Shown in pieces: positions 5,603 to 28,965 of a stretch of DNA of 64,000 nt. Position numbers and translations under genes: made by a program. The notes under the pieces are model-generated. The model worked only from the letters and a program-made list of their open reading frames with translations. It was not told the DNA's origin and did no database searches. The stretch covers positions 3,943-67,942 of the forward strand of contig CAWAJE010000001.1 in the NCBI GenBank assembly GCA_963782215.1, in the 5' to 3' direction. The stretch comes from an uncultured Actinomycetota bacterium. GTDB lineage: Bacteria > Actinomycetota > Actinomycetes > Propionibacteriales > Nocardioidaceae. Position 1 is the stretch's first letter. Each line of letters begins with the position of its first letter.

Positions 5603-5607
5603 GCCAG

Positions 5608-6099: not shown

Positions 6100-6116
6100 C
6101 CACCTACGCTGCGGCT

Positions 6117-6722
6117 ATGGCAGCCTCTCGTACCCCCATGCGTCGTCGGCAACGTAGCGTCCGGGTCACCGTCTCGGTGGCGCTGCTCTCGGTGGCGTCG
6201 GCGGTCGTGCTCCTGGCTCTGTCCACCCGGTCGGTGCTGTGGCTGAGCCTGGGCTCCGTGCTGGCGATGGCGCTGTCGTGGGCCGCCCTGCGGATGATGT
6301 GGACCGAGGTGCTGCAGTCACGTCGCGAGAATGCCACCGACCGCGCCGCCGCCGCGTCCGCCTACCGCAGCCTGTTCAGCCTGCGGGCCAACGAGCACGC
6401 GGAGTTCACCACCGCGATGACCGAGCGCCTCGCCGAGGCGCACCTGTCCCAGCGCGAGCTCGAGGGCGTCGTGGTGCACACCGAGACCCGCGCGCAGCGT
6501 GCCGAGTCGCGGTTGATCACCGAGTCCAAGGCGCTAGTCCAGGCCCGTGAGCGGATCCAGCAGCTCGAGGTCGCGGTCGCCGTACGACAGGCCGAGGAGG
6601 CCGACGCCCTGGCCACCTGGGAGGCCGAGGGCGGCGACAGCGTCGCTGCGCTGGTCGCCTGGGAGGAGCAGGCCCTCAAGACCGCGACCGAGCAGGACAC
6701 CTCGGTCCTCAAGCACGCCTGA
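6117..6722 (+). CDS. hypothetical protein with 2 N-terminal TM segments and a coiled coil
   Basis: Host-like codon usage; TACGCT -10 box 6 nt before the ATG. Confidence 0.75.
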   Translation: MAASRTPMRRRQRSVRVTVSVALLSVASAVVLLALSTRSVLWLSLGSVLAMALSWAALRMMWTEVLQSRRENATDRAAAASAYRSLFSLRANEHAEFTTAMTERLAEAHLSQRELEGVVVHTETRAQRAESRLITESKALVQARERIQQLEVAVAVRQAEEADALATWEAEGGDSVAALVAWEEQALKTATEQDTSVLKHA

Positions 6723-7105: not shown

Positions 7106-10100
7106 ATGGCCGACTCCGAGCGTCAGGGTGGGAGAAGGATGAAGGCTGAGTCTCCCCGCGGACGAGCCAGATTTCTGGCACGCCAGGTGCCACGCCAGGC
7201 GAAGCGGCGTGCAGCACGGGTGGTGCGTCGCCTCCGCAGCGGTCGCCCGCTGGCGACGGCGGTGGTGCTGTTGTCCGGGCCAGAGGACGCTGCCCGCGCA
7301 ACGCTCGACTCGGTCCGTGACCAACCGGTGGCAGCACTCGAGATCCTCGCGGTGGTCATGGACGAGCGTCTCGACGGGCTGGCCGCCTCCGCGGTCGCGG
7401 AGGACTGGAGGGTCCGTCGCCTGACGAGCGTGGGTGACGACCGAGCCGCAGCGCGTCGCGTGGGGTCGGCCGCGGCATGCACGCCTGCCTTGATCTTTCT
7501 CTCGCCCCGCCAGGTGCTGGTGCCCGGCGCGGTCGAGCGGCTCCTGGCCGAGTCCTCCGAGGGGACGGTGCTCGTGCTGGGCGGTGTCGACGGTGCCCCA
7601 GCCCCGTGGGCGCGCACACCTCTGCTGGGTCGGCTCTTGGTGCCGCGTGAGCTCTGGACGGCCGCGCACGATGACGGGGAGCCCGACGGCCAGACCGTCG
7701 CGGTCTCGCTGATGTCGACGGGCGCGGTCGAGGTGGACGCCGCTGTGCTCGGTGATCGCCATGTGCCGCGGGCCAAGCTGTTCGAACGCGGGGTCGACCC
7801 TATGCCGGCTTTGACTGCTCGGGTCGCTGCGGACTGCGCCATGCTGGAGCGCTTGGCAGGCGTCGACGGACTCTTGCGTGCGGCGCGTGCCACGGGTGCC
7901 TTGGTGCGCGATCTGCCGACCTTCGTCTTCGAGGCCGAGCGGGCGGACGAGAGCACCTGGCAGCTCCTGGTGGGGCACGCGTCCCGGCTGATGCTGGAGG
8001 CGGGCGCCGCGGGGGTTCGAGAGCTGGGCGTCGAGGAGCGTGTCGCCACCTGGTTGACCGCCGAGGGGCGTCGGGAGGCGCTGGTCGAGTTCGTGGCCGC
8101 CCGCCGGTTCGCCGGAGGTCACTTCGCGACGCGGGTCGTGGAGGGTCAGGTGCTGGCGCTGTTCGAGGCGCTGCCCGACGACGTCCCTGCCGAGATCGTG
8201 CTCCTGAGCGACGCCGAGAGCGGCCTGCGCGCACAGCTGCGCCGGAGCCGGGTCCGCGACGGCGCCCTTGAGGTCGAGGTGTTCGCCGGGATCCGGATGG
8301 CCGACCAAGGCACCGATGTCCTCGACGTCACGGCGTCGCTCGTCAGTGGCGCCGACCGGCTCGAGCTGTCGGTCGAGGTCGGTGCGGACATGGCGGTGAC
8401 GCGGTGGATGGGTGAGCCGCACCAGTACCACGACTTCGGCGTGCTCACCTGCCGGACTTCGCTGGACCTCCTGACGCCCGGATCCTGGCACCTGGACCTG
8501 GACGTGCACTGTGGCGGCGTACGACGCACCGGGCTGGTCTCAGAGCTCGACCCGCACGGCTCGGCCGCGCAGGAGCTGCGACTGGAGGACCGCAGCCTTC
8601 GGTGGACTCGGAGGTCGGACGCCGTGCAGCTGACGGTCACCGAACCGCCCGCTCCGCCCCCTGACCCGGGGACGATCGTCGTCCAAGACACCTCTTTCGG
8701 CCCGCGACGACTGGTGCTGAGCTTCGAGGCATCCGAGTCGGCGCGCGCGAGCCTGGTTGCTCCGGGCCAGGTGATCACCGGCGCGCGCGAAGGGAGCGAG
8801 TGGACCTTCGAGCTCGAGACCGACCCCTGGTCGCTCGGCATGATGCCGGCGCCGAGCGCGAGCTATCGGCTCGTCGTCACCGAGGACGGTGTCGAGCGCC
8901 CGGTGACCGCCGCTCGACGCGTGGTCGACCTGCTTCCGCGGGTCGACCAGGACGACGGGCACCGCAAGGCGCTGTGGGGTGGCCCGCGGGGGGGTCTGAC
9001 CCTCCGGCTGGACCCCCCGTTGGCTGAGGAGGTTGCCGGGCCGTGGGCTCAACGTCGGCTCCAGCGCCGGCACGCCACGATCGAGGGACCGGTCGATCCC
9101 AGGCTGGTGTACTTCCAGTCCTTCCTCGGCCAGTCGCCCACCGACCACCCTGCGGCCATCCAGACAGAGCTGCACCGGAGCCTGGGCGAGCGCGGGATCT
9201 CCGGCGTACGGACGCTCTGGGCGGTGGCGGATGCGTCCGTGCGCGTCCCCGAGGGCGCCGAGCCCGTGCTGATGCGCAGCCAGGAGTGGTACGACGCCCT
9301 GGCCCGCTCAGCGTGGGTGGTGACCAACATCGAGCTGGAACCGTGGTTCACCCGACGCGAGGGCCAGGAGGTGCTCGAGACCTACCACGGGTACCCCTCC
9401 AAGGCGATGGGCCTGAGCCAGTGGAGATCGCGAGGTCTGACCCCCAGCCACCAGCGCCAGATGCTGCAGCGGACCTCGGGGACGTGGAACAACCTGCTCA
9501 CCCCGATCCCGGAGATGGACCACTACTACCGCGAGAACTATGAGTTCGAGGGGCGGATCCTCTCCCTGGGCTATCCCCGCGACGACGCCCTTGTGTCCCC
9601 GACCCGTGACGAGCAGCGCCGCGCGGTACGCCGTCGCCTCGGTATCGGCGAGAACCAGTCGGCCGTGCTCTACGCCCCGACCTGGCGCGACGACCTCGCC
9701 ACCAACTTCCGCCGCGCCGAGGCACTCCTGCATCTCGACGTCGACGAGGCGGCCGCGGCGCTCGGGCCCGACTACGTGATCCTGCTGCGAGGCCATCGCT
9801 TCCATGCCGCCTCGGCGGGCGGCGCCCAGGTGCTGGACGTCACCACCTATCCGGAGATCAACGACCTGATCCTGGCCGCCGACGCCGCGGTCCTGGACTA
9901 CTCATCGCTCCGGTTCGACTTCGCTCTCACTGGGCGGCCCATGGTCTTCTTGGTCCCCGATCTCGACTCCTACACGCGGCAGACGCGCGGCTTCCTCTAC
10001 GACTTCGCGGACTCGGCGCCCGGTCCGTTCCTCGACACCACCTCCGAGGTGGTCGAGGCGCTCTCGGACCTGCCGGCGCTGCGCACCCGCTGGACGGCGC

Positions 10101-10198
10101 AGATCGAGGCGCACAACTCCTCCTACAACCGGCTGGCCGACGGTGACGCGGCGCGGCGGGTGGTGGGGGAGTTCTTCGCCCCGCTCCTTGGGTGCTGA
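7106..10198 (+). CDS. CDP-glycerol/ribitol:polyol phosphotransferase (TagF/TarL family) with degenerate N-terminal GT2-like domain
   Basis: C-terminal ETYHGYPSK, GYPRDD, LYAPTWRDD, LRGH, DYSSLRFDFALTGRPMVF; alternative start at 7139. Confidence 0.9.
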   Translation: MADSERQGGRRMKAESPRGRARFLARQVPRQAKRRAARVVRRLRSGRPLATAVVLLSGPEDAARATLDSVRDQPVAALEILAVVMDERLDGLAASAVAEDWRVRRLTSVGDDRAAARRVGSAAACTPALIFLSPRQVLVPGAVERLLAESSEGTVLVLGGVDGAPAPWARTPLLGRLLVPRELWTAAHDDGEPDGQTVAVSLMSTGAVEVDAAVLGDRHVPRAKLFERGVDPMPALTARVAADCAMLERLAGVDGLLRAARATGALVRDLPTFVFEAERADESTWQLLVGHASRLMLEAGAAGVRELGVEERVATWLTAEGRREALVEFVAARRFAGGHFATRVVEGQVLALFEALPDDVPAEIVLLSDAESGLRAQLRRSRVRDGALEVEVFAGIRMADQGTDVLDVTASLVSGADRLELSVEVGADMAVTRWMGEPHQYHDFGVLTCRTSLDLLTPGSWHLDLDVHCGGVRRTGLVSELDPHGSAAQELRLEDRSLRWTRRSDAVQLTVTEPPAPPPDPGTIVVQDTSFGPRRLVLSFEASESARASLVAPGQVITGAREGSEWTFELETDPWSLGMMPAPSASYRLVVTEDGVERPVTAARRVVDLLPRVDQDDGHRKALWGGPRGGLTLRLDPPLAEEVAGPWAQRRLQRRHATIEGPVDPRLVYFQSFLGQSPTDHPAAIQTELHRSLGERGISGVRTLWAVADASVRVPEGAEPVLMRSQEWYDALARSAWVVTNIELEPWFTRREGQEVLETYHGYPSKAMGLSQWRSRGLTPSHQRQMLQRTSGTWNNLLTPIPEMDHYYRENYEFEGRILSLGYPRDDALVSPTRDEQRRAVRRRLGIGENQSAVLYAPTWRDDLATNFRRAEALLHLDVDEAAAALGPDYVILLRGHRFHAASAGGAQVLDVTTYPEINDLILAADAAVLDYSSLRFDFALTGRPMVFLVPDLDSYTRQTRGFLYDFADSAPGPFLDTTSEVVEALSDLPALRTRWTAQIEAHNSSYNRLADGDAARRVVGEFFAPLLGC

Positions 10199-10208
10199 CC
10201 CGGCAGCT

Positions 10209-11354
10209 TCAGGAGGCTTCGTGCGTTGGGGTGGGCCCGGGGACCTCTGCACCGACACCGTGACCGTCGGTGCGTCTGATCGCCGGCGAAGGTGCGAGCG
10301 CCCCTTGGACGGCGCGCCGAAGGGGCAGTGCAGTGGGACGCTCGACGAGCACATGGATCAGCCAGGCCAGGGCGAAGCTGGTCGTGGCAGCGACGACCAG
10401 CACCAGGTAGGCCGACTGGTCCGCGTGTAACTCATCGATCACGAAGAAGCCCACCTGGCCGTGCACCAGGTAGAGCGGGTAGGTCATCGCTCCCGCCCAG
10501 GTCAGCCACCGCCAGTCGATGCGCGCGAGCGGGCCGTGCGTGACGAGGAGCACGACGCCGATCATGGCGACCACCACCAGACCTGTGACCAGGGGAGAGA
10601 CCTGCGCGCCCACGAGCTCGCTCGCGCGAGGCGCATACCCCGTGGCCTGGGCGACGCAGAGCACAGTGTTGAAGCCGAGGACGAGTCGCGTCGCGATGTC
10701 GTGCCCCTCGCGGTGCAGCAGGAACAGGCAGATCCCGGCGGCGAAATAGGGCGCGTAGGTCGGGATCAGGAGCGAGGTCAGGAAGGTGGTGTCCGTCGCC
10801 GACGCGATCTGTCCGACCAGCGGCCACAACAGCGCGAAGGCAACCATCCTTCGCCGGGTGATTCCCACCATGATGAAGGCACTGATCAGCAGGTAGAACT
10901 TGAGCTCGATCCACAGCGTCCAGAAGGCGCCCTGCACGTGTGGAACGTCCAAGGCGTTCTGCACCATGGTGAGATTGACCAGAGCCTCGACGAAAGTCGG
11001 CTGGCGACCGCCTGACCAGAACTGCTGCAGTCCGAAGGTGAGCACGATGGCGGCCCAGTACGCCGGGAACAACCGTGCAACCCGGGAAGCGGCGAACGAC
11101 TCGATCGGTCGGCTGTAAGCCGTCATCAGGATCACGAAGCCGCTGATTATGAAGAAGAGCTCGACGCCGAGATAGCCGTAGCGGGTGAACTGGTTCAGGG
11201 TCGGGAAGACGTCGAAGGCAGGGGTGTCCCAGAACTTGGTGCGGATCCCGCTGTAGTGAAAGGCGAGCACCGAAACGGCGGCGAGCAACCGGAGACCGTC
11301 CAACGCTGCGAGGCGAGATCGAGGCTGACGCGGGCTGCTCACCGGTGTTGACAC
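10209..11354 (-). CDS. acyltransferase-3 (OafA-like) membrane O-acyltransferase
   Basis: LDGLRLLAA..H, GVELFFIISGFVI, RVARLFPAY, FWTLWIELKFY, TYPLYLVH; about 10 TM. Confidence 0.92.
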   Translation of the reverse strand: MSTPVSSPRQPRSRLAALDGLRLLAAVSVLAFHYSGIRTKFWDTPAFDVFPTLNQFTRYGYLGVELFFIISGFVILMTAYSRPIESFAASRVARLFPAYWAAIVLTFGLQQFWSGGRQPTFVEALVNLTMVQNALDVPHVQGAFWTLWIELKFYLLISAFIMVGITRRRMVAFALLWPLVGQIASATDTTFLTSLLIPTYAPYFAAGICLFLLHREGHDIATRLVLGFNTVLCVAQATGYAPRASELVGAQVSPLVTGLVVVAMIGVVLLVTHGPLARIDWRWLTWAGAMTYPLYLVHGQVGFFVIDELHADQSAYLVLVVAATTSFALAWLIHVLVERPTALPLRRAVQGALAPSPAIRRTDGHGVGAEVPGPTPTHEAS

Positions 11355-11555
11355 CGCGCCAAACTACCAGCGCTTGCAGGCCGCGAAGGGCACGCTCCCC
11401 GGCGCCTTTGCCGGTGGCTGCGCACGTGCGTGGATCTTGCTCACCCCACCCGGTGTGGGGGTACCGCCAGGACGCGAGCTGAATCGTTAGGCTTGCCGCC
11501 CGTGCCGCCGAGGGCCGAACTCCGGGGGGCAGCCGACTATCAGGTGAGGTAGGCG

Positions 11556-14500
11556 ATGGCGTCGACGCGAGTGCGTCACCTGCGGGACCGCGCTAGAGGT
11601 CTGGTCTCGCGTGCGCGGCATCGGACTGCCGGACGGCCGGTCACCGTGAGCGTCGTGGTGACGGCACGGATGTCCCACGCCCCGTTCCTCGACGAGTGTC
11701 TCGACTCGCTGTTCACCCAGAGCTGGCCGCACGTGGATGTGATCGTGGCGCCGTACGGTCCCTCTCCGGATCCCGTCGTCCAGCTGGTGGAGGCGCGGAA
11801 GCGCGCGACCTTGGTCGAGGCCTCCGCAACCGTCGGTGCCGCCCGCAACCGGGGCGCCCGGGCTGCCACCGGAAACTACCTGGTGTTCGTGGCGGCTGGG
11901 GACATCGTCCCCCGCTCAGCCTTGGCCAGGATGTGCGAGAGCCTGGAGTCCTCAGGGTCGGACTTCGCCAGGGGTGAGGTCGTGGTCGGTCGGCCCCGTC
12001 CCGGCCAGGACCGATCTAGAGGGAGCGCTGCCCTGCCCCCGGTGACCGGCGCCTCCCTCGGCCAGGCCCCGGAGGTGATGGCGAGCAACTTCGTAGAAGG
12101 CACGACGTTCCGGCGCAGCTTCTGGTCCGGGTCGGAGCTCGCCTTCGCCGACAGCGATGGTCCCGCCCTCGACCTGGCCGTGGCGCGCTCACATCTTGTC
12201 GCATCCAGCTTCGATGTGCTGGCGGGCCCCACGTATCGCTACATGGATCGGGGCACCGGCCAGGTCATCGGCGCGGAGAAGGATGCCCTGGCGGACCTGG
12301 ACGAGTGGCTCGACACCTGGGACCAGATCACCGCCATGCTCGCGCAGTCCGATGAAGCGGTGCGTCACGCGTGGTTGACCGGACTGATGAGGTCGAGTCT
12401 TGTCAGGCTGCTGGCTGGTACCGAGCAGGCGGACGCCGTGCAGTGGGAGCGACTTCGGGCGACAGTGGTCGGCATGATCGGGCTCGGCGGGCCCGGTCTG
12501 CTGGCCATGGTGCCGGTGGTGCCACGGCTGCATGTCTGGCTCGCGGCTATGGGCCGACGCGACGATCTGGAGGATTTCGTCGCGGACCGTCGCCTGGAGA
12601 AGGACGACTTCTGCACCCGCGTCGAGAGTGGTGTGGTGTCCGCGGAGATGCCTCTTCGTCACGATCCGGACATGCCGAGCGACTTGTTCGAGCTGAGTCC
12701 CACCGAAACCCCGTTGTCCGCATCACTGCGCCGCCTGCGTTGGCGCTCGGATGACGTCGTCGAGCTGGACGTCTTCGCGGTGATCAGGCATCTCACGATG
12801 ACGGAGGCCCCCGAGGTCTCGGTCCGTCTTGCGGACCCCGTGTCGGGGCGCCGCTTAGACCTCGCTGTTCAGCAACGACAGGACCTGGAGGTCAACCGCT
12901 TCGCCGCGTTGCGGTGGCAGGACGTCAGTGCAGGGGCCTTCACGGTCGAGGTCGATGCGGTGAAGCTCGTGGAGATCCAGGTGCAGGAATGGGTCTTGGA
13001 GATCGAGCTGACCGCGTCTGGCGTGACGCGTTCCGGGGTGGTGGGTCACCGGTTGCATACCGGATCGGCTGGGCTGGCGGGACCTCGGTCGGTAGGGACT
13101 CGTGTGGTGTCGCTCCCGCCGGGACCTGGGCCGGTGACCGTTGCCGTGAGCCCTCCGCGCAGTCGGCTCCTCGCCGCCACGATCGAAGGTCGGACGATCG
13201 TGGGCAGCGTGCTGCTGGGGCCCAACCACGAGCACCGTTCAGGAGAAGTGCAGGTCTCGATCTCCCAGGGACGAGCCCAGGTGACGGCGACCCGGGTCGA
13301 GGCCGGCGCCAAGGGGGAGCTGCACTTCGAGGTGAGCGTCCCTGAGCGGCCCGAAGCGCGCATCCCCTTTCCGGAGCGTCACTGGGCGCTGAATCTGCTC
13401 ACCGAGGTAGGGCCTGAACCGGTGGCCTGGCTCGACTCCAGTGCGGCCGACTGGCGAGGGCAGGGTCCGACGAGTGTCGTCGCCCTCCACCGCACAAGCC
13501 GGGGCGACGCGGAGGTGTTGACCACCCAAGGGCTGGCCGAGATCGAGGGTGTCGAGCTCAGCCGTGATGCCTTGACCGTGCGCGGGTCCTGGGTCGGCAC
13601 TCCCGTTCGTGCTTGGACGCTCGCGCTGTCGAGCGATCGACTCACGGTGCGGGGCGAACCAGCGACTGGTGGGGAGGACGGGCGATTCGAGGTCCGCCTG
13701 CCGCTGACGTATGACGAATGGGGCCTCGACGAGGTGGGTCTGCCCCGCAGCACCTATCGGATCGTGATGAGAGCACACGGAGACCGAGCAGACGAGGAGG
13801 GCGAGGACCTGCCTCTGATGATCCATCCGGCGCTGGTGCAGGAGCTACCTGTCGACCAGTCCAACGACCGTTTCCGGGTCCGGATCGGACGTGGTGCGGC
13901 GGGTCGCCTGCTGATCTTCGTGCAGAAGCCCTACGCCGAGGACGAGTTGGGCCCCTTTGCCCAGCAGACGCTCCGCTCGGCCTATCGCGCGAGCATGCCT
14001 GTGCTCGACCCCGACGCGGTCTATTTGCAGTCCTACACCGGGGTCAGCGCGACCGACTCCCCCCTCGCGATCCATCACGAGCTGCGACGGACCCATCCCC
14101 ACCTGACGCTCTACTGGGGGGTGGCGGACAGTTCGACTACGGTTCCCGAGGGCGGCGTCCCTGTGATGACCTACACGCGCGAGTGGTACGAAGTCCTGGC
14201 CCGGGCTACGTATCTGGTGAACAACGTCGACTTTGACCGGTGGTTCGCCCGCAAGCCAGGCCAGAGGTTGCTCCAGACTTTCCACGGCTACCCGGCCAAG
14301 TCGATGGGCATCGGGATGTGGCGGTCGAAGAACTACGGACCACGACGGATCCGTGCCGAGCTCGACCGCACCTCGCGCCACTGGGACCTGATCTTGACCC
14401 CAACTCCTGAGATGGACGTGCACTACCGCACCGAGTACGCCTACGACGGCCCGATTCTCTCGCACGGTTACCCTCGTGACGATGTCCTGGTCGGGGACCG

Positions 14501-15104
14501 CGGCGCGAGCGCGCGACGCCGCACACGCGAGCTGCTCGGCATTGTCCGTCACCAGACGGTCGTTCTCTACGCACCCACATGGCGTGACGACCTCGCAACC
14601 TCCTACCGTTCCTCGCCTTTGGTGCGGCACCTCGACCTTTCGGCGTTGGGAGAGGCGCTCGGTGAAGACTTCGTGCTGCTGATGCGAGGGCATCGCTTCC
14701 ACGACGGACAACCACGTTCGGCGGGTGAAGCGCGGCTGATCGACGTGACGCACTACCCGGAGATCAACGACTTGATCCTGGCGGCCGACGTCGCAGTGCT
14801 CGACTACTCCTCGATCCGGTTCGACTTCGCGTTGACGGGGCGGCCGATGCTTTTCCTGGTCCCGGACATCGAGCGTTACGCGGGCGACGCACGGGGGTTC
14901 CTGTTCCCGTTCGAGGAGTCAGCTCCGGGTCCACTCGTCGCGACAGCAGACGAGCTGTTGGTCCACCTTCAAGACCTCGACCGGGTGCGCGAGAACCACC
15001 GGGCGGCGTACGAAGCGTTCAACGAGCGCTTCAACTACCTGCAGGACGGTCGGTCCGCGGAGCGGGTGGTCGCGACGTTCTTCGATCCTCCAACTGAACA
15101 GTGA
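11556..15104 (+). CDS. GT2-like/TagF-family CDP-polyol phosphotransferase (paralog of 7106..10198)
   Basis: N-terminal GT2 features (VSVVV, GAARNRG..ATGNYLVFV); C-terminal QTFHGYPAK, GYPRDD, YAPTWRDD, DYSSIRFDF. Confidence 0.92.
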   Translation: MASTRVRHLRDRARGLVSRARHRTAGRPVTVSVVVTARMSHAPFLDECLDSLFTQSWPHVDVIVAPYGPSPDPVVQLVEARKRATLVEASATVGAARNRGARAATGNYLVFVAAGDIVPRSALARMCESLESSGSDFARGEVVVGRPRPGQDRSRGSAALPPVTGASLGQAPEVMASNFVEGTTFRRSFWSGSELAFADSDGPALDLAVARSHLVASSFDVLAGPTYRYMDRGTGQVIGAEKDALADLDEWLDTWDQITAMLAQSDEAVRHAWLTGLMRSSLVRLLAGTEQADAVQWERLRATVVGMIGLGGPGLLAMVPVVPRLHVWLAAMGRRDDLEDFVADRRLEKDDFCTRVESGVVSAEMPLRHDPDMPSDLFELSPTETPLSASLRRLRWRSDDVVELDVFAVIRHLTMTEAPEVSVRLADPVSGRRLDLAVQQRQDLEVNRFAALRWQDVSAGAFTVEVDAVKLVEIQVQEWVLEIELTASGVTRSGVVGHRLHTGSAGLAGPRSVGTRVVSLPPGPGPVTVAVSPPRSRLLAATIEGRTIVGSVLLGPNHEHRSGEVQVSISQGRAQVTATRVEAGAKGELHFEVSVPERPEARIPFPERHWALNLLTEVGPEPVAWLDSSAADWRGQGPTSVVALHRTSRGDAEVLTTQGLAEIEGVELSRDALTVRGSWVGTPVRAWTLALSSDRLTVRGEPATGGEDGRFEVRLPLTYDEWGLDEVGLPRSTYRIVMRAHGDRADEEGEDLPLMIHPALVQELPVDQSNDRFRVRIGRGAAGRLLIFVQKPYAEDELGPFAQQTLRSAYRASMPVLDPDAVYLQSYTGVSATDSPLAIHHELRRTHPHLTLYWGVADSSTTVPEGGVPVMTYTREWYEVLARATYLVNNVDFDRWFARKPGQRLLQTFHGYPAKSMGIGMWRSKNYGPRRIRAELDRTSRHWDLILTPTPEMDVHYRTEYAYDGPILSHGYPRDDVLVGDRGASARRRTRELLGIVRHQTVVLYAPTWRDDLATSYRSSPLVRHLDLSALGEALGEDFVLLMRGHRFHDGQPRSAGEARLIDVTHYPEINDLILAADVAVLDYSSIRFDFALTGRPMLFLVPDIERYAGDARGFLFPFEESAPGPLVATADELLVHLQDLDRVRENHRAAYEAFNERFNYLQDGRSAERVVATFFDPPTEQ

Positions 15105-15105
15105 G

Positions 15106-15837
15106 TCACTCGGAGAACGGTTTGCGCGCCACCAGTACATAGTTCTTCGGCATCCCCGTGTTCGTGTGCTTGCGACGCACGTCCGCCCGTGCGAAGGGCG
15201 CCCGCAACCAGCCCGCCAACCACCGGGTCAGCAGGATCATGGGTGCGACGTAGACGACGCGCCAACCGAATCCCATTGCGCGCACCGAGGCCACATCTGG
15301 CGGTAGCCATCGGTACATCTGGTGGAACTGGTGCGACACCGTGCCGAGGTAACCCTCCAACCACGAGATCCGCAAGACCTCGAAGCCGGCCTCCTCGAAT
15401 ATCCGGCGGAGGGCGAACTGTGTGTACCGGTAGAAGTCGTACGGCTGCTGATGCTCCTCGTAGAACAGGGGTACCGAGCAGAACAGCCGCCCTCCCGCCT
15501 TCAGGACGCGATGCAACTCAGTGAGTGCAGTAGCGGGCTCTGGGAGGTGCTCCAGCACCTGGTTGAACAAGATCCGGTCGAAGCGCCCATCCTCGACAGG
15601 AATGTCGCTGAGGTCGCAGACGTAGTCAAGAGGTGCGTAGGCCGTACCTAGAGCGGCGAAATCGGCTGCCTCATAGTGGGCGTGATCGAAGAACGAACGG
15701 TAGGGGGATGTTCCTGCGCCAGCATCGAGGACGTAGGAGCCCGCTGAGGTGTTGCGTGCGAACCTTCTGACCGCCCGCTTGAGGTGCACGCGCGACGCGT
15801 TCAGGTACGGGGGCGCGTGCTGAAGACTCAAGGGCAT
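15106..15837 (-). CDS. class I SAM-dependent methyltransferase
   Basis: VLDAGAG, FDRILFNQVLEH, RVLKAGG, HQQPYDFYRYT; type common in surface-polysaccharide loci. Confidence 0.88.
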   Translation of the reverse strand: MPLSLQHAPPYLNASRVHLKRAVRRFARNTSAGSYVLDAGAGTSPYRSFFDHAHYEAADFAALGTAYAPLDYVCDLSDIPVEDGRFDRILFNQVLEHLPEPATALTELHRVLKAGGRLFCSVPLFYEEHQQPYDFYRYTQFALRRIFEEAGFEVLRISWLEGYLGTVSHQFHQMYRWLPPDVASVRAMGFGWRVVYVAPMILLTRWLAGWLRAPFARADVRRKHTNTGMPKNYVLVARKPFSE

Positions 15838-15858
15838 GCGGATTCCTTCGCGATCTGA

Positions 15859-17754
15859 CTATTTCCTGCTGACGACCAGGGCGTTGGTTGCCTCGTAGTT
15901 GAGCTCGTAGGTGGCTCGTTGCTCCGAGGGGCGGGTCAGGATCGTCTGCCAGGCGGTGTTGCTCCACACCACCCGGAGGCGCAGGTGGAACTCCGTTGAG
16001 CCGGCCCCCAAGCGGGCGAAGACATCAGCGGCGTCGACGCGGCCACGGACGTCGAAGCGGCGTCCGGTTCGACGGAACAGGACGGGGACCGAGGCGACCG
16101 CCCCGGTGGACTGGCACCACGCGTCGACGGTGACGGCGACCCCGTCCAGAGTGCGCTCCGGCCCACGCCCACGCAGATGCACGCCGGCCTCGATCTCGAC
16201 GAGGGGGGCCCCGCCGGCCTTCGACCTGCGGGCCAGTGGCTGCGCCTGTGGAGGGACCAGGCGTCGCGGCAGCCGTCCGGCACGGGCTCGACCGAGGCGC
16301 TTGACCTCGAGGTCCACGCCGTCGAGGTGTACCCGAGAGTTCTTGTTGGCGACGGCGGCCTGCAGTGCACGCCGCCAATCGGCGAGGAAGGCGCGGTAGT
16401 CGTGAGCCTGAGCCTTCTTTCGAGCCTTGATGCTCATGGAGGCCACGAGCTCCGGGTCGCGAATCAAGGTCACGACCCTGTCGGCGAAGGTCTGGAGATC
16501 CTGGGCCGGGGTCAGGAACCCGTCGACTCCGTCGGTGATCTGCTCTCTTGGCCCGTACTTGATGTCGTAGCTCACCACAGGACAGCCGCGGCTCATGCTC
16601 TCCAGGGAGGCGAGCGGGTAGCCCTCGAACAAGCTGGTCATCAAGAACCCGGTGGCGCTGAGCAGGTTGTCTCGAGCCTCCGGGCTGTGTCCGCACAGAG
16701 TCACAGCATGACCGACGCCCAGCTCGTCGATCAGGGCCTGCAGCGGAATTCTGAGGTTGCCGTCGCCGTAGATCTCCAGCACTGCCTCTGGTTCCTGCTC
16801 CAGGACCAACGCGAAGGCACGCACGGCGTGGTCGAGCTGCTTTTGGCGCTCGAGCCGGGAGACCACGGCGAAGCGAGCACGCGCACGGGGCGGCATCACG
16901 GTGGGCAGATCGGGGAGGTCGACTGGATTGGGTACGACGAACAAGTTGTTGGTCTCGCCGTAACGCTCGATCACGTCCTCGCGCTGACGGTGCGAGAGGG
17001 TCACCAGTCCGTCGATCTTGTCAATCCCCTCCAGGAGGGGCCGGTAGTCCTTCGACAATGGCGAGTCCCACCGGCGCTCGCCGACGGTGTGCGTGTTGTG
17101 CATCAGGTGCAAGATGTGGAAGCGCCTGTCTCGCATGGGCGCGATGTGGGCCAGCGCGAAGCGGCTGTCGCTGATCATGAAGACGCGTTCCGCGTCGCCT
17201 GCCAGGATTCGCAGCCACATCCGGTACCAGTGACCCTTGCGCTTCCACGACTGGACGGGACGCCCCTGGGGGTCGACGAGGACGTACGGCGTCGCTGGGG
17301 TCGAGTCTGCGCTGACCCCGGAGGGGGTTCGCATGAACACCGACCCATCGGGTCGGCGGTAGTCCGAGGCGGCCTCGACTCCCGAACGCCCGTGCAGGTA
17401 CGCCGTGCGATAGACGGTGCCGTCAGGGTGCAGCTCGTCGTGTGAGACGAACCCCTCCAGGGCGGGTAGTGGCGTTCCAAGTGGTGCAGCGTCAGGGACG
17501 TCGTTGTGGCGGAACCAGTCGAAGATGTTGAGCAGATCCATGCCCGGGACGAGTTGCCCCTGTCTCTGCAGTTCGGCTCTGACCTCGTCGTAGACGGGAT
17601 CCGGGTCGAGCGTCAGAAGAGTGGTCCTCACTCCTGCCCGCTCGGTGAGGATGCGGTTGCGCATCAGCAGCGCCCGAGTCTGCCCCCCGGTGCCGGCGCG
17701 CATCATGCCGCTGAGGGATAGGTAGAGGCCCGGCGGCATCTCGATCTCCGGCAT
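15859..17754 (-). CDS. GT4 retaining glycosyltransferase (TagE/TarM-like teichoic acid alpha-glycosyltransferase)
   Basis: GGQTRALLMR N-terminus, VSRLERQKQ, EGYPLASLE (EX7E), YDIKYGPREQI; ATG at 17754 preceded by TACAGT -10. Confidence 0.88.
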   Translation of the reverse strand: MPEIEMPPGLYLSLSGMMRAGTGGQTRALLMRNRILTERAGVRTTLLTLDPDPVYDEVRAELQRQGQLVPGMDLLNIFDWFRHNDVPDAAPLGTPLPALEGFVSHDELHPDGTVYRTAYLHGRSGVEAASDYRRPDGSVFMRTPSGVSADSTPATPYVLVDPQGRPVQSWKRKGHWYRMWLRILAGDAERVFMISDSRFALAHIAPMRDRRFHILHLMHNTHTVGERRWDSPLSKDYRPLLEGIDKIDGLVTLSHRQREDVIERYGETNNLFVVPNPVDLPDLPTVMPPRARARFAVVSRLERQKQLDHAVRAFALVLEQEPEAVLEIYGDGNLRIPLQALIDELGVGHAVTLCGHSPEARDNLLSATGFLMTSLFEGYPLASLESMSRGCPVVSYDIKYGPREQITDGVDGFLTPAQDLQTFADRVVTLIRDPELVASMSIKARKKAQAHDYRAFLADWRRALQAAVANKNSRVHLDGVDLEVKRLGRARAGRLPRRLVPPQAQPLARRSKAGGAPLVEIEAGVHLRGRGPERTLDGVAVTVDAWCQSTGAVASVPVLFRRTGRRFDVRGRVDAADVFARLGAGSTEFHLRLRVVWSNTAWQTILTRPSEQRATYELNYEATNALVVSRK

Positions 17755-17815
17755 GGCCGCTACTGTAGTGGTCGGCCTCGGGCATCGGGTGCCTCCCCGA
17801 ACCCCAGGAGTGTTG

Positions 17816-20404
17816 ATGTCGAGCCGTGGTCCCGGGTTCCAGCGTCGTCGTGTGACCCACGTGCTCAAGCAGGCAGCGCGTCGGGTGGCAGGCGCGTCGG
17901 CTGACCCCGATGACACCCGGACGGAGCGCAGGCTGCCAGCCCCCTCCGAGGGGGCGGTCCCGCCCGGTCCCGCCCCGATCCCGTTGCTCGAGACGCTGCG
18001 TCGTGGTGGATCGCTCCACGCCGCCATGACGAAACAGATCCGCGCCGATGTTGCGGGTGGTCGGAGCGAGGTGGCTCTTGCAGTGGCTGCGTCGTTGCGT
18101 GGTCGGTCCGAGACCGCCGACCTGGGCGCCCTGGTGTCCGGTGTGGTGGCTTTCCGGCGCGGTTATCCCGACCTCGCTTGGCACCACCTCGCCGAGCTTC
18201 CGATGGTGATCTGGTCGCAGCACGCGGCCGAGGAGTACGTCAGATCCGGTCTCCACGTCGACCCCGACGCCACTGTCACCGCAGTCCGTGACCTGCTGAC
18301 GGCGGCTCCCGACGAGCTCTCAGCCAGTTCCTGGTTCTCGATGATCGGCCCGTTCTTCGGGCACGGCGACCTGGAGCTGGCGGCCCATCTTTTCGCCAAG
18401 CTGGATCAGCTCGTAGGGGACGGTCGGGGCCTCGATCCGGCGCTAGCCGTGAATCGCGACTGGCTGCGTCCTTGGATCTCGCGCTCCCCGGAGCCGGTGT
18501 CCGCTCCGGCGGTGGCCCCCGACAAGGTCTCCTTCGCGATCATGGACTACGGGCATCCGGGGCGGGCGCGTGCCTCGGCCAACATCGGTGACCACGTCCA
18601 GAGCTTGGCCTCCCTGGGGCATTTGGTGCGGCACCAGGGGCTGGAGTTCTCCGGGCCTCAGGACCTCCTCGACCTCATCCACCAGCTCCGTGGCCGGGTA
18701 CGCGAGGACCGTCAGCTCACTGAGGTCACCGCCTCGGTCGAACTGTTGGCCGTGGACCGCGACGCCTCGGAGTTCTCGGCGATTCCTCCCGACACCTGGA
18801 CGCTGGCCTTCGGCTGGTTCATGCACGCGATCTTCGACATGCGCTACGGATTCCCGTTCCACCCCAACCTGCGCCCGATTTTCGTTTCCTTCCACTGCAG
18901 CAAGCGGGACCTGTTGACAGAGCAGGCGATCGACTACCTGCGCAAGCACGCGCCCATCGGCTGCCGTGACTGGACCACGGTCGACGTGCTGCTCTCGGTC
19001 GACGTTCCCGCCTTCTTCTCCGGGTGCATGACCACCACCGTCAGCACCGTGTTCCCGGACACCCCACACAAGCCCGGAGCGGCCGCGCAGGTCGCGTACG
19101 TCGACGTGCCCGACGACGAAGTGCCTGCCGGGGCGCCGACCTATCGTCACAGTGACGACGCCATCCGGTTCCGCAGCTTCGCTGCGAACATGTACGACGC
19201 GATAGAGCTGCTCGAGACCTACCGGCGCGAGCACTCCGGCTTGGTGACCAGCCGTCTGCACTGCTACCTGCCGGGCCGCTCCATCGGTGTGCCGGTCGAC
19301 TTCCAGCCCGGGAACCGGTCCGATCCGCGTTTCGCAGGTCTGATCGACATCACTGACAACGAGTTTGACCGGATGCGTGAGTCGATCACCAGCAAGCTGC
19401 GGACAGTCCTCTCAGTTGCCCTCGCGGGTCGACCACCCGAGGAGGTCTACGAGCTCTGGCGCGACCTCAACGCCGACGACGTCGCGGCGGCCCGGCGCCG
19501 CCATGACGCCCCTGCGCAGATGCCGGTGTCCAAGGTGGACCTCGCTGCCGAGGCGGCAGGTCAGCTCGCTAGTCGCGAGCTTGTGCAAGTAGGTCCTGAC
19601 GTCGTGCACGTGGTCGTGCACGCCCGAGGCCTCGACCAGAGGAACCTTGTGGTGATGCTGGCTTCGGTGGTTGCGCGCAGCTCGCGTCCTGTGGCGGCCT
19701 GGGTGCTGACTCGCAAGCCTGGGCGGATCGACCTGGAGGCCTTGCGTACGGCCGTACCAGGAATGGAGGCCGTGACCGTCCTCAGCACGCGCGGTCTGGG
19801 GTCCGACGTACGTCGCGCCGACGGCCGTCGACCTGCTCCGCGTGACCTCGACATGTTGGCGTTGAGTCACCTGCTGCCCGAGCTCGACCGCGTCGTGGTG
19901 CTTCCCGCAGCAGCCCTGGTGCTCGGAGACGTCGCCGCACTCGCCGACGTCGACCTCGCAGGCGGCCTGCTGGCCGCTACAACGTCGGTCGGGCAGAAGG
20001 GCTCCAGCGGCTTCGAGGTCCTGCACGCCGCGGGCAACCGTTTGGGGCCCCGCACCGCTGCCTCGACCGAGCTCCGACGGCAAGGGCACCAACGTCACCG
20101 GTTCGACTTCGATGCTCTCGACGACGCTGTGCTCGTGCTCGACCTGGCAGAGGCCCGGCGCCGTAGGTTGCTCGAGACCTACACGTCCTACATCGAGGAG
20201 TTCGGACTCAGTTTCCGGGAGATCCTGCTACTCGAGGTGGGGCCGAACCGCGTTGCCCTGCCCGAAGCGTGGCACGTGGTTCCTGACCGCTCGGCGGTCG
20301 AGGAGCCGAAGCTGATCCACTGGGCCGACTCGGGGAAGCCGTGGGCAGCCGATGTCGTGGGGTTCCAAGAGCTGTGGCAGCGGGCTGCCGCCGACGTCAG
20401 GTAG
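17816..20404 (+). CDS. multidomain polysaccharide pyruvyltransferase-like + GT8-like protein
   Basis: NIGDHVQS, IGCRD, SGC, TSRLHCYLP (pyruvyltransferase-type motifs); C-terminal LLPELDRVVVL..LGDVAAL and PKLIHWADSGKPW (GT8-like); AGGAG RBS before ATG 17816. Confidence 0.75.
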   Translation: MSSRGPGFQRRRVTHVLKQAARRVAGASADPDDTRTERRLPAPSEGAVPPGPAPIPLLETLRRGGSLHAAMTKQIRADVAGGRSEVALAVAASLRGRSETADLGALVSGVVAFRRGYPDLAWHHLAELPMVIWSQHAAEEYVRSGLHVDPDATVTAVRDLLTAAPDELSASSWFSMIGPFFGHGDLELAAHLFAKLDQLVGDGRGLDPALAVNRDWLRPWISRSPEPVSAPAVAPDKVSFAIMDYGHPGRARASANIGDHVQSLASLGHLVRHQGLEFSGPQDLLDLIHQLRGRVREDRQLTEVTASVELLAVDRDASEFSAIPPDTWTLAFGWFMHAIFDMRYGFPFHPNLRPIFVSFHCSKRDLLTEQAIDYLRKHAPIGCRDWTTVDVLLSVDVPAFFSGCMTTTVSTVFPDTPHKPGAAAQVAYVDVPDDEVPAGAPTYRHSDDAIRFRSFAANMYDAIELLETYRREHSGLVTSRLHCYLPGRSIGVPVDFQPGNRSDPRFAGLIDITDNEFDRMRESITSKLRTVLSVALAGRPPEEVYELWRDLNADDVAAARRRHDAPAQMPVSKVDLAAEAAGQLASRELVQVGPDVVHVVVHARGLDQRNLVVMLASVVARSSRPVAAWVLTRKPGRIDLEALRTAVPGMEAVTVLSTRGLGSDVRRADGRRPAPRDLDMLALSHLLPELDRVVVLPAAALVLGDVAALADVDLAGGLLAATTSVGQKGSSGFEVLHAAGNRLGPRTAASTELRRQGHQRHRFDFDALDDAVLVLDLAEARRRRLLETYTSYIEEFGLSFREILLLEVGPNRVALPEAWHVVPDRSAVEEPKLIHWADSGKPWAADVVGFQELWQRAAADVR

Positions 20405-20425
20405 GCCGCCCAGCTCGCCGACGTC

Positions 20426-21811
20426 TCACCCCAGCGGGTCCTCTCGGCGGATGTCCACGATGTGCCCGGTCTCGCCGGAAACCAGTGTGGCCAAGGAGGC
20501 GCGGGCGACCTCTTGCGACGACAGCAGCGTGCCCGGCGGCTCCTCCCCGAAGGCCTTCGTGCGCATCGGGGTCGCGGTGCGCTCGGGATTGATGCAGTTG
20601 ACTCGCACGTTGCTGCCGCCCCACTCATCAGCCAGCGCCTGGGTCAGGTTGACGACGGCCGCCTTGGCAGAGGAGTACAGGCTGTACCCGCTTCGTCCTC
20701 GGGTGTACGAGCTCGAGGTGAAGAACAGCAGGCTGCCGCTGGTGGCCTCGAGATGTGGCAGGAACTCCTGCGCGATGAAGACGGGCGCCAGGTAGTTGAC
20801 CTCGGTCGAGGCGTAGATCGTCTCCTCCGAGGCGTCGCGCAGCGCTCCTCGTGGAAGCACGCCTGCGGCGTTCACCACCAGGTCGATGTGGTCCACTTCG
20901 GCCAGAACGGATGCCGCTGCCGCGGCGATGTCCTCTCGTCGCTCGACGTGCGTGCCCGTCCCCGAGCGACTGAACGCGAAGACCTGAGCGCCGTAGGCCC
21001 TGGCCATCGTCGCGATGTCGGCGCCGATTCCGTAGCTGCCACCGAACACGACGAGGGTCTTGCCCTCGAGTGACTCGCGGTACTGCTGGTCGGTCCACGT
21101 GGGAGCGACGTTCTGGCTCGTGAGCTGGAAGAGCTTGTCGGCCAGGTAGACGTCGATCGGGTCGGTGATCTTCATGTTGCGCTCATCGCCCACCACTACG
21201 GTGATCGGCACGTCCGGCAGGTAGCGCAGCACGACCGTGCAGTCATCAGTGGCGACGAAGTCCGCGTCCTCGGCCGCTACGGCGTAGGCACGCTTGATCA
21301 CTTCGCACCGGAACGCCTGTGGGGTCTGGCCCCGTCGAAGCCTCGATCGGGGCGGGATCTGCGTAATGGTGTGGTTCTCGTCGACCTCGATGATGGTGTC
21401 GGCCGAGGGGATCGCGACGTCGACCGCGTCGAACGTGTCCAGCGCCTCGAAGCACTCCCTGATGATTCGACCACTCACCAGTGGGCGGACGGCGTCGTGG
21501 AAGAGCACCTTGCTGGTCGGATCGGTCACTGTGGCGAGGGCACGCATCGTCGTCCCGTTGCGGGTCTCGGCACCCTCGAGGATCTGCGTGACCTTGGTGT
21601 AGCCGCCGACGTCCACGATGTAGCGGACCGCGTCGAGGTGCCCCGGAGCCATCATGATCACGACCTCATCGACGTCTGGGTGCGCGTTCACCGTGGCCAG
21701 TGTGTGTTCGAGGATCGTGCGTCCGGCGATCTTGATCAGCTGCTTCGGGATATCGAGGCCCACCCGGGTACCGACCCCGCCAGCGAGGATCACTGCGACG
21801 TTGCTGCTCAT
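20426..21811 (-). CDS. bifunctional cytidylyltransferase (IspD/TarI)/SDR reductase, Bcs1-like CDP-ribitol synthase
   Basis: LAGGVGTRVG..PKQ, HDAVRP, QTPQAF, TDD, NMKIT; then SDR GGSYGIG, NAAG, YSSAK. Confidence 0.9.
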   Translation of the reverse strand: MSSNVAVILAGGVGTRVGLDIPKQLIKIAGRTILEHTLATVNAHPDVDEVVIMMAPGHLDAVRYIVDVGGYTKVTQILEGAETRNGTTMRALATVTDPTSKVLFHDAVRPLVSGRIIRECFEALDTFDAVDVAIPSADTIIEVDENHTITQIPPRSRLRRGQTPQAFRCEVIKRAYAVAAEDADFVATDDCTVVLRYLPDVPITVVVGDERNMKITDPIDVYLADKLFQLTSQNVAPTWTDQQYRESLEGKTLVVFGGSYGIGADIATMARAYGAQVFAFSRSGTGTHVERREDIAAAAASVLAEVDHIDLVVNAAGVLPRGALRDASEETIYASTEVNYLAPVFIAQEFLPHLEATSGSLLFFTSSSYTRGRSGYSLYSSAKAAVVNLTQALADEWGGSNVRVNCINPERTATPMRTKAFGEEPPGTLLSSQEVARASLATLVSGETGHIVDIRREDPLG

Positions 21812-22077: not shown

Positions 22078-23031
22078 ATGGCCCGAATCGGGGTTGTCGG
22101 CGCCGGCCGTGTCGGTGCCGTCCTGTCCGCCGCTCTCCGCGCGGCTGGTCACGAGATCGTGGCCGCAGCGGGGGACTCGGCTGCCTCCTTGCACCGCATC
22201 GACACGCTGCTCCCCGGGATCCGGTCCGCCAAGCCGACCGACGTGGCGCGCTCGTGCGACCTGCTGCTGCTGACCGTGCCCGACGACATGCTCGAGAACG
22301 TCGTCAGCACGCTCGTGGGCGCCCGCGCGATCCGCTCCGGCCAAGTCGTGTGCCACACCTCGGGTCGTCACGGGCTGGCCGTGCTCGAGTCGGCGACCGC
22401 CATCGGCGCCCGGCCGATCGCGATGCATCCGGCGATGACCTTCACCGGCACCGAGGTGGACCTCGCCCGGCTCGAGGGCTGCGTCTTCGGCGTCACCGCC
22501 GGCGCGCCGGAGCGGGAGTACGCCGAGGGTCTCGTCGACGATCTCGGTGGGATCGCGATGTGGGTGCCGGAGGACAAGCGCACGCTCTACCACGCAGGTC
22601 TGGCCCACGGGGCGAACCACCTGGTCACCCTGGTCAGCCAAGCGATGGAGCTGCTCGCCGCCTCGGGGGCGGAGGACCCGGCCGCCACCCTGCGTCCGCT
22701 GCTGACCGCCGCGCTCGACAACGCCCTCGCCGAGGGAGACGCGGCGCTGACCGGCCCGATCGTGCGCGGTGACGTGCGCACCGTGCAGGCCCACCTCGCC
22801 GACATCGCCGAGACCGCCCCCGCGACCATCCCGTCCTACGTCGCGATGGCGAAGGCCACCGCCGACCGGGCCGTGCTCAACGGCCGGCTGCTGCCGATCC
22901 GGGCGGGCGCGATCGTCGCCGTCCTGGACCGGGCACTGGCCGCCGTCGGCGAGCCCCCGCTCGGCCCGCCACGACCCACCACCCGCGCGTCCCGACACAC
23001 CACCCGGGCCACCCGGAGCGACTACCGGTGA
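22078..23031 (+). CDS. Rossmann-like/DUF2520 protein (PanG-type ketopantoate reductase)
   Basis: [36 protein letters not shown]; directly upstream of panC. Confidence 0.88.
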
Positions 23032-28914: not shown

Positions 28915-28965
28915 TGCCCGCTCCTCGTGCTCAGTCGTCCGGGTCAGCAAAGTAGCCTGTCCGCC

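Follow-up and report, generated by a model that had tools for sequence, protein, structure and literature searches.

Introduction

Among the closest described relatives of the locus presented here are the ribitol wall teichoic acid (WTA) pathways of Staphylococcus aureus and Bacillus subtilis W23, the bifunctional CDP-ribitol synthase Bcs1/Acs1 of Haemophilus influenzae, and the TarIJ protein (SGR_4956) encoded beside TagF (SGR_4957) in Streptomyces griseus. The locus comprises seven genes at positions 7106 to 21811 of a 64,000-nucleotide stretch of DNA, referred to as the window (GenBank assembly GCA_963782215.1, contig CAWAJE010000001.1, positions 3,943 to 67,942 of the forward strand), which is part of contig C1 of a metagenome-assembled genome of 3.46 Mb in 69 contigs, 81.8% complete, assigned to Nocardioides from the names of its best protein matches. 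An earlier note on this DNA had proposed that the seven genes, inserted between the fol and pan operons, make a glycosylated and pyruvylated ribitol-phosphate wall polymer. The sequence and model comparisons described below favor, with a probability of roughly 0.55, an explanation in which the cassette would make and decorate a ribitol-phosphate wall polymer and would be one allele of a locus that varies throughout the genus.

With the S. aureus and B. subtilis W23 pathways the cassette shares a predicted CDP-ribitol supply, TagF-family phosphotransferases that retain the catalytic His, and a glycosyltransferase of family 4 (GT4) that belongs to the TarM clade; its GT2 domains are distantly TarS-like. 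On the other hand, the predicted reductase is a fused short-chain dehydrogenase/reductase (SDR) domain, whereas those species have a separate TarJ of the medium-chain dehydrogenase/reductase type, and the TagF enzymes are 1030-1182 aa proteins with fused GT2 domains that lack the DxD motif. Putative pyruvyl, O-acyl (AT3) and methyl functions have been added, and the locus has no genes for D-alanylation, TagO/TagA or TagGH. The elements that are new with respect to the described systems are a three-domain family of pyruvyltransferase-like proteins, the DxD-less GT-A/TagF fusions and a site, between folK and panG, whose content varies throughout the genus.

In Streptomyces a fused tarIJ adjoining tagF (SGR_4956 and SGR_4957) goes with 1,5-ribitol-phosphate WTA shown by nuclear magnetic resonance (NMR), glycerol polymers are predicted for species without the fused gene, and the ribitol WTA is decorated by TarM-like and TarS-like enzymes (bioRxiv 10.1101/2025.04.24.650519; PMC13274773). 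The Nocardioides protein is like the S. griseus one in its two-domain order and its linkage to tagF, and like Bcs1/Acs1 in the order of cytidylyltransferase and SDR domains, both being likenesses of architecture. Its neighbor is the gene for a pyruvyltransferase-like fusion protein, whereas the neighbors in S. griseus are teichuronic-acid genes.

Nocardioides luteus and N. albus are said, in work by Shashkov and colleagues, to have polymers with pyruvylated galactose. Wall teichoic acids have been described in the Nocardioidaceae (PMC6113628). The sections of a pyruvylation review on which we draw give structures of actinomycete teichoic acids that bear pyruvate, and those sections name no gene for them; they assign pyruvylated ribitol teichoic acid to Nocardiopsis, the ketal being carried by ribitol itself in Nocardiopsis metallicus and by GalNAc in Nocardiopsis halotolerans; in Brevibacterium iodinum a pyruvate ketal is carried by mannitol (PMC6801904).

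The seven-gene cassette and its conservation

The cassette starts with a gene for a TagF-type polymerase, TagF1 (7106..10198, + strand, 1030 aa; PF04464, 260 bits), followed by genes for an AT3 membrane O-acyltransferase (10209..11354, − strand, 381 aa; PF01757, 92 bits), a second polymerase with an N-terminal GT2 domain, GT2-TagF2 (11556..15104, + strand, 1182 aa; PF00535, 44 bits, and PF04464, 293 bits), and a class I S-adenosylmethionine-dependent methyltransferase (15106..15837, − strand, 243 aa; matches to Methyltransf_23 and Methyltransf_11). The GT4 of the TarM/SdgB clade (15859..17754, − strand, 631 aa from its likely start; PF00534, 105 bits) is divergent from the gene for the three-domain protein (17816..20404, + strand, 862 aa from its likely start), which consists of helical, pyruvyltransferase-like and GT8-like domains. 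The last gene codes for the cytidylyltransferase-SDR protein (20426..21811, − strand, 461 aa; IspD, PF01128, 152 bits, and adh_short, PF00106, 112 bits).

Pfam, NCBIfam and PDB matches recovered all seven genes with the domains that the earlier note had named, at or close to where it had placed them. Five keep their coordinates, but the starts of the GT4 and fusion genes have been moved. The longest open reading frames (ORFs) of these two genes overlap (15859-18027, − strand, for GT4; 17753-20404, + strand, 883 aa, for the three-domain protein), and residues 1-91 of the former and 1-21 of the latter look non-coding. The most likely starts are M92 (17754) for GT4 and M22 (17816) for the three-domain gene, since the resulting lengths agree with the gene calls in relatives, 624-632 aa and 863-872 aa respectively. 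The corrected genes are separated by a divergent intergenic spacer of 61 bp (17755..17815), and the same head-to-head arrangement is found in the loci L053, G029 and G035 described below.

Two independent metagenome contigs carry all seven genes with order and strands unchanged, in agreement with the claim that they are a coherent set. ERZ25039476 contig_27945 (L053) has TagF, AT3, GT2-TagF, methyltransferase, GT4, three-domain and cytidylyltransferase-SDR genes, and a 24.6-kb ERZ1823574 contig has the identical set, its cytidylyltransferase-SDR gene adjoining panG at the contig end. The proteins of both cassettes are approximately 50-85% identical to those of the window. The ERZ1823574 cassette also has an extra gene, between TagF1 and AT3, for a 667-aa TarS-like GT2 with a TarS_linker domain, which may carry out beta-glycosylation in place of the degenerate fused GT2 domains.

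Parts of the cassette recur further afield. A genome of another genus of the same order (G029) has the GT4, three-domain and cytidylyltransferase-SDR genes adjacent to each other, another genus (G033) has the cytidylyltransferase-SDR gene followed by the three-domain gene, and in G035 the GT4 gene is head-to-head with the three-domain gene. Through this recurring neighborhood the predicted ribitol supply is linked to both the GT4 and the pyruvyltransferase-like protein. The seven genes can thus be considered a conserved cassette for a CDP-polyol-dependent polymer of the teichoic-acid type, an assignment that is well supported and very probably correct.

The base composition of the locus is in line with the enrichment in A/T-ending codons claimed before, which is moderate: its G+C content is 67.7%, compared to 70.5% for the genome (2.3rd percentile among windows of equal size), and the G+C content at third codon positions (GC3) ranges from 0.80 to 0.87 among the seven genes, compared to a genome median of 0.91 (3rd to 24th percentile).

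The cytidylyltransferase-SDR protein

The domain order claimed for this protein, that of Bcs1, is present: PF01128 covers residues 5-226 and PF00106 residues 288-421. The translation has intact cytidylyltransferase (GGxGxR...PKQ) and SDR (GxxxGxG and YxxxK) motifs. Its best PDB matches are to TarI, led by 6xhp (109 bits; E 3e-30 for the top TarI) and including 2vsh, 3f1c and 4jis, the nearest solved relatives being the ribitol-5-phosphate cytidylyltransferases of S. aureus, S. pneumoniae and B. subtilis. IspD (2xwl, 90 bits) comes behind them by a modest margin, so the protein is nearer to TarI than to IspD, and a separate housekeeping IspD is encoded in the same genome at C62:11647. Homologs with 75% identity carry the JGI name ribitol-5-P dehydrogenase/cytidylyltransferase. 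No TagD (TIGR01518) was found above threshold in the genome of the window, at its 81.8% completeness, which makes the product of this protein the sole CDP-polyol donor detected there. These comparisons single it out as a candidate CDP-ribitol synthase, similar in type to Bcs1 and TarIJ, with ribitol as the likely polyol.

The TagF proteins and their GT2 domains

The catalytic TagF domain of TagF1 occupies residues 660-1021, behind a beta-rich central region and an N-terminus that resembles a degenerate GT2 domain. GT2-TagF2 joins a TarS-like GT2 domain, through beta-rich domains in its middle, to a TagF domain at residues 814-1176, and over approximately 490 residues the C-terminal parts of the two proteins share 46% identity. 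Both TagF domains match TagF in PDB (E 1e-48, to 3l7i, for TagF1 and E 5e-50 for GT2-TagF2). In the alignment to 3l7i the equivalent of TagF His444 is retained in TagF1 within the motif ETYHG, and GT2-TagF2 reads QTFHG.

The GT2 domains of both proteins have lost the DxD motif. The sequence FVAAGD of GT2-TagF2 is aligned with FVDSDD of GalT1 (5hea) and VAPYGPS with INDGST, so that the upstream acidic pair is also lost. This loss is common to its four closest database homologs (P0245-P0248, 49-56% identical); the motif, as F-D-x-D-D, is retained in distant GT2-TagF fusions, including Streptomyces proteins annotated as bifunctional, and in every GT2-TagF2 homolog of the relatives' loci. The DxD position of TagF1 reads FLSPRQ or similar (SPR) here and in every homolog aligned. 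Like the DxD-less GT8-like domain described below, both have kept many invariant residues among their homologs, and they have the look of pseudo-enzymes that were retained, or of enzymes of a non-canonical kind, and not of decay.

Counterparts of TagF1 that are approximately 52-58% identical over most of its length were found in G010, G015 and G024 and, in pieces, in G012. All four genomes also have the cytidylyltransferase-SDR gene, and close counterparts are restricted to genomes of the same genus that bear it. In G022, which has it as well, the alignment to TagF1 is limited to the C-terminal TagF domain.

The three-domain protein

An AlphaFold2 model of the three-domain protein built on 30 homologs has a predicted local distance difference test (pLDDT) score of 89, and includes a helical domain (residues ~56-221), an alpha/beta domain (~236-570) and a GT8-like domain (~597-862). 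When the middle domain was modelled alone (pLDDT 88.5), only two chains were found above Z 9: the uncharacterized KP1_0663 (Z 12.6, 223 residues aligned, root-mean-square deviation (rmsd) 4.0) and the yeast ketal-pyruvyltransferase Pvg1p (Z 11.8, 234 residues aligned, rmsd 4.3). Generic GT-B folds follow from Z 8.4 down. The domain has in common with the ketal-pyruvyltransferases of PF04230 (CsaB, WcaK and Pvg1p) a two-Rossmann fold, and 27 of the 30 family members match PF04230 at E ≤ 0.1 (best 5e-6) and match almost nothing else. It is nevertheless very divergent from those enzymes, and is set between a helical and a GT8-like domain.

Among the 30 homologs R384-D385 and R480-L481-H482 are invariant. 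In Pvg1p, R217 and R337-L338-H339 have been modelled as contacts of phosphoenolpyruvate (PEP), according to the portion of the review that treats this enzyme (PMC6801904), and the invariant R-L-H and upstream R-D of the three-domain family may correspond to these contacts. For the R-L-H the correspondence is suggested by its offset, the structural alignment ending 34 residues beyond the motif in the three-domain protein and 35 beyond it in Pvg1p. Taken together, the models suggest that the middle domain is probably a divergent, active pyruvyltransferase, and the claim of a pyruvyltransferase-like domain in a fusion protein is borne out. Pyruvylation of the polymer is plausible and, on balance, somewhat favored.

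The C-terminal domain has the GT-A fold of GT8 enzymes such as LgtC, the C-terminal domain of WbbM, and glycogenin. Structural comparison with VIA-align gave Z 24.1 for WbbM and Z 22.9 for LgtC, and the domain alone scores 26.6 bits on PF01501, above the cut-off of 24.3. The DxD of those enzymes is lost here: in the profile alignment I-D-S-D of WbbM and L-D-I-D of LgtC fall on L-P-x-(D/A) of the three-domain family. Pro replaces the first Asp in 30/30 homologs, and the protein of the window reads LPAAAL, the second Asp being replaced by Ala, which makes a metal-dependent transfer of the GT8 style doubtful. The C-terminal motif H-W-x-x-x-K-P-W is retained.

A profile of the middle domain matched at least 2,956 cluster representatives (50% identity) at E ≤ 0.001, and 423 at E ≤ 1e-30. 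No bridge to canonical pyruvyltransferases was visible among the best 150 of these at least 2,956 matches. Close full-length relatives occur in Nocardioides, Marmoricola, Friedmanniella and Microlunatus. The best existing annotation of family members is "glycosyl transferase family 8", and to our knowledge no member has been studied so far.

GT4, acyltransferase and methyltransferase

The GT4 matches TarM (4x7m) as its best PDB structure, at E 2.6e-27 over residues 301-551, the C-terminal Rossmann half, and the NCBIfam model SdgA at E 2.6e-35. Its E-x7-E motif is present in the translation as FEGYPLASLE. These matches assign it to the TarM/SdgB/GtfA clade of retaining glycosyltransferases, in accord with the TagE/TarM type named by the earlier note. 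Unlike S. aureus TarM it has no match to the inserted oligomerization domain DUF1975, residues 92-300 being without a Pfam family even at E 10, and its C-terminal extension of approximately 170 aa has no family match. The AT3 protein has 60-65% identical counterparts in G006 and G017 and the methyltransferase a 63% identical one in G006; both genes keep their positions in the two metagenome cassettes.

The variable site between the DUF3180 gene and panG

The cassette lies between a left anchor (5482..6722, + strand), consisting of a DUF3180 gene (PF11377 match) and orf6003-6722, and, on the right, a panG-type ketopantoate reductase gene (22078..23031, + strand; Rossmann-like and DUF2520 domains, PF10727 and PF10728). 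The gene order is ftsH-folP-folB-folK-DUF3180-orf6003 on the left and panG(DUF2520)-panC-panD-nadB-nadC-coaX on the right, and the identities first given to these flanks, fol on one side and pan on the other, were correct.

Genomes of the same genus carry panG at 71-91% identity. Twenty of them had both anchors on one contig, and the gene content of the relatives' loci was mapped by tblastn. In 20/20 the gap between DUF3180 and panG is 7.8-26 kb and holds glycopolymer genes that differ from one genome to another. Another family of the order has a gap of 5.5-9.7 kb, and in G031, which belongs to a distant family, it measures 1.5 kb. Cytidylyltransferase-SDR and TagF-type genes are at the site in G010, G012, G015, G022 and G024. 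GT4, three-domain and GT2-TagF genes are found there in G006, G014 and G017, with AT3 detected in G006 and G017, and TagF is wholly missing from it in G007, G009, G013, G018 and G023. The closest relative, G002 (PanG 91%; 94% complete in 270 contigs), yielded no cytidylyltransferase-SDR gene and no three-domain gene. We conclude that this is a genus-wide variable site and not a one-off insertion, since in all 20 genomes the gap is filled and its content differs; the position given in the earlier note stands, but the insertion it described is one allele of that site.

No tRNA gene, integrase signature or flanking direct repeat was detected at the locus, the only repeats being the paralogous TagF domains. 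A classic integrative island was considered and rejected, the site being occupied in every same-genus genome examined. The locus resembles the O-antigen and capsule loci of Enterobacteriaceae (galF-gnd) in its fixed position, variable content, lower G+C content and absence of integrase, tRNA and repeats; it differs from them in its folK-DUF3180 and panG flanks, actinomycete host and teichoic-acid-type content. Recombination within the conserved flanks is the probable route by which one allele replaces another.

Some further features of these loci were recorded. L026 (G017:C1:2448890-2468889), L027 (G014) and L023 (G006) have TagF-type genes together with a TarM-like GT4 and the three-domain gene at this same site. 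A phosphatase gene of the EEP family adjoins AT3 in G017 and G006, and an OpuA-type betaine/choline ATP-binding cassette (ABC) transporter is found inside the G017 variable region. The DUF3180 gene and orf6003 adjoin the variable region in most of the loci retrieved from the genus; orf6003-6722 (+ strand) has no Pfam or NCBIfam match, and counterparts with 33-67% identity lie behind DUF3180 in most of these loci.

Proposed pathway

The following steps are all drawn from protein families and gene context. The cytidylyltransferase-SDR protein would reduce ribulose-5-phosphate and activate the product to CDP-ribitol, and TagF1 and GT2-TagF2 would use this donor to prime a ribitol-phosphate chain and lengthen it; the chain would be borne by a lipid-linked linkage unit, the enzymes for which would be encoded elsewhere. 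The DxD-less TarS-like GT2 domains are probably scaffolds or binding modules and not sugar transferases, and an alpha-linked sugar would be attached by the TarM-clade GT4. The middle domain of the three-domain protein would move pyruvate from PEP, as a ketal, onto the GT4 sugar or directly onto ribitol, its GT8-like domain probably holding the polymer or a nucleotide. Finally, AT3 may O-acylate and the methyltransferase O-methylate the polymer. We regard the full chain in its original form, a ribitol polymer with sugar, pyruvate, O-acyl and O-methyl groups, as evenly poised between right and wrong.

Linkage unit, export and attachment

As reported before, the window includes no TagO, TagA or LCP gene. 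Three LCP genes are located elsewhere in the genome, on C20 and C60, and there are several ABC-2 permeases, among them unassigned ones at the contig ends of C60 and C40. Complete relatives have a second PF00953 gene, and TagA is encoded elsewhere in G010, G014 and G017.

A DrrA/DrrB-type ABC-2 ATPase-permease pair is present at 47827-49292 (+ strand), approximately 26 kb downstream of the locus; it was considered as a TagGH exporter, but it looks DrrAB-like and cannot be called TagGH. A third TagF-like gene (G000:C20:50543-51688; L003:1210-2355, − strand; 381 aa) has a partial match to PF04464 (39 bits). It adjoins a calcineurin-like phosphoesterase gene and has an LCP gene 23 kb away on the same contig, and it may code for a primase-type enzyme of the linkage unit.

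Alternative explanations

Many of the findings brought together in this paragraph and the next weigh against a ribitol-phosphate wall polymer decorated as proposed, and several of them speak for one of the alternatives. With regard to the polyol, the cytidylyltransferase-SDR protein scores 150.6 bits on NF001183, the ribitol-5-P cytidylyltransferase model, under its cut-off of 166, and 173.8 bits on TIGR00453 (ispD), also under the cut-off (181.3). IspD-plus-reductase pairs are known to yield other CDP-polyols, such as CDP-6-glucitol (PMC10918830), and a mannitol teichoic acid bearing pyruvate, from Brevibacterium, is among the structures in the review sections cited (PMC6801904). Because the ribitol model falls short of its cut-off and other CDP-alditols are possible, ribitol is our best guess and not a result, and the architecture does not reveal specificity. 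Furthermore, the TagF domains resemble the glycerol-phosphate enzymes TagF and TarF more than TarL in sequence, with NCBIfam scores of 181-193 bits for TarF and 50-81 bits for TarL (E 4e-12 and 1e-20 for the TarL matches), all under the equivalog cut-offs. Two genomes that are 99-100% complete, G017 and G014, have TagF-type genes, GT4 and the three-domain gene, and neither a cytidylyltransferase-SDR gene nor TagD was found in them, only the housekeeping IspD; the same holds for G006. The three-domain protein is thus not strictly dependent on ribitol. A non-ribitol teichoic acid built from arabinitol, glucitol, mannitol, erythritol or another CDP-alditol is nonetheless improbable, given that among solved structures three ribitol-5-P enzymes stand nearest to the cytidylyltransferase domain, that fused actinomycete tarIJ correlates with NMR-shown ribitol WTA in Streptomyces, and that the JGI/KEGG-style annotation of the 75%-identical homologs says ribitol. 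Of the ribitol-phosphate polymer claimed by the earlier note, the CDP-polyol, teichoic-type character holds; ribitol itself is read from the architecture, and the TagF domains lie nearer to the glycerol enzymes.

The same machinery may also make another product, such as a poly(glycosyl-polyol phosphate), a polysaccharide or hybrid bearing ribitol-phosphate, or a capsule not linked to peptidoglycan. Precedents are TagF-like capsule polymerases and the WTA-teichuronic hybrid of Streptomyces, in which teichuronic caps are found on ribitol WTA (bioRxiv 10.1101/2025.04.24.650519). A GT-plus-TagF fusion is the architecture of multi-enzyme capsule polymerases, and one of these, Cps3D (8qoy), is the second-best PDB match of the TagF proteins; other genera have the GT4, three-domain and cytidylyltransferase-SDR genes with no TagF found within approximately 10 kb. 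The missing LCP, TagO and TagA genes of the window point the same way, and in the genome as assembled the sole PF00953 protein is MraY and no PF03808 was found, so TagO and TagA were not detected, an absence that a genome only ~82% complete does not demonstrate. Against these points, the lack of DxD in the TagF-fused GT2 domains makes an alternating sugar and polyol-phosphate polymerization by one polypeptide unlikely, and the three LCP genes elsewhere and the WTA described in the Nocardioidaceae favor a wall polymer, so that we consider another product unlikely. A polymer without pyruvate would result if the middle domain were a divergent GT-B-like domain with other activity, such as glycosyl- or phosphotransfer, or were non-catalytic. 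The protein of the window scores 18.2 bits (E 0.0025) on PF04230, under the gathering cut-off of 25.3, and nothing in its genome is above that threshold; a sequence search of PDB with the middle-domain family profile gave chance matches and no pyruvyltransferase. Foldseek against PDB found only GT8 matches for the whole model and none at E ≤ 0.001 for the middle domain, and of its two top folds KP1_0663 is uncharacterized. Yet Pvg1p and KP1_0663 are ~3.4-4 Z units over all generic GT-B folds, the family matches PF04230 and essentially nothing else, and the invariant R-D and R-L-H resemble the PEP contacts modelled in Pvg1p, so a middle domain other than a pyruvyltransferase seems rather unlikely. 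Lastly, three of the four glycosyltransferase-like domains, the GT8-like and the two GT2-like ones, have no DxD, which leaves the GT4 as the only one that looks like a working glycosyltransferase; the predicted sugar decoration of the polymer is sustained for the TarM-clade GT4 but not for these three. The same loss could mean that the cassette is decaying, its DxD-less GT-A domains being pseudo-enzymes and the locus no longer making polymer. This is very improbable, because none of the seven ORFs is disrupted, the degenerate domains have been preserved among homologs (49-66% identity) with many residues invariant, the seven-gene order is retained in two other organisms, and the three-domain family counts thousands of cluster representatives. 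A decorated ribitol-phosphate wall polymer is the explanation we retain.

Other features of the window

The convergent gene pairs within the cassette have ends that are 1 bp (15104-15106) and 21 bp (20404-20426) apart, and no terminator-like hairpin was found between either pair, so that transcripts from opposite strands would overlap. Further downstream, the lysyl-tRNA synthetase ORF at 27799-30480 (+ strand) has a longest form of 893 aa, of which only residues 459-889 correspond to the class II core; either its start is over-called or the protein has a long N-terminal extension.

Significance

The earlier note had put forward that the polymer may serve as a phage receptor that varies between strains. 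Streptomyces polymers of the WTA type are receptors of umbrella toxins (bioRxiv 10.1101/2025.04.24.650519; PMC13274773). In a broader and tentative scenario, which we hold to be possible though short of probable, the three-domain protein would found a large family that installs the pyruvate ketals of actinomycete teichoic acids, the pseudo-GT8 domain would hold the polyol-phosphate chain, and the folK-panG region would be a serotype-like locus under pressure from phages or toxins.

For the pyruvylation of actinomycete teichoic acids the cassette puts forward a concrete enzyme candidate that can be tested and whose family is very large and unannotated; as a defined unit of seven genes it could be transferred to a model strain. 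The GT-A domains of the TagF enzymes, conserved without DxD, are possible pseudo-enzymes recruited as scaffolds for wall polymers. In Nocardioides the variable genes for surface polymers have one set place on the chromosome, which is a simple marker for wall-polymer typing in this genus and for studies of the diversity of phage and toxin receptors.

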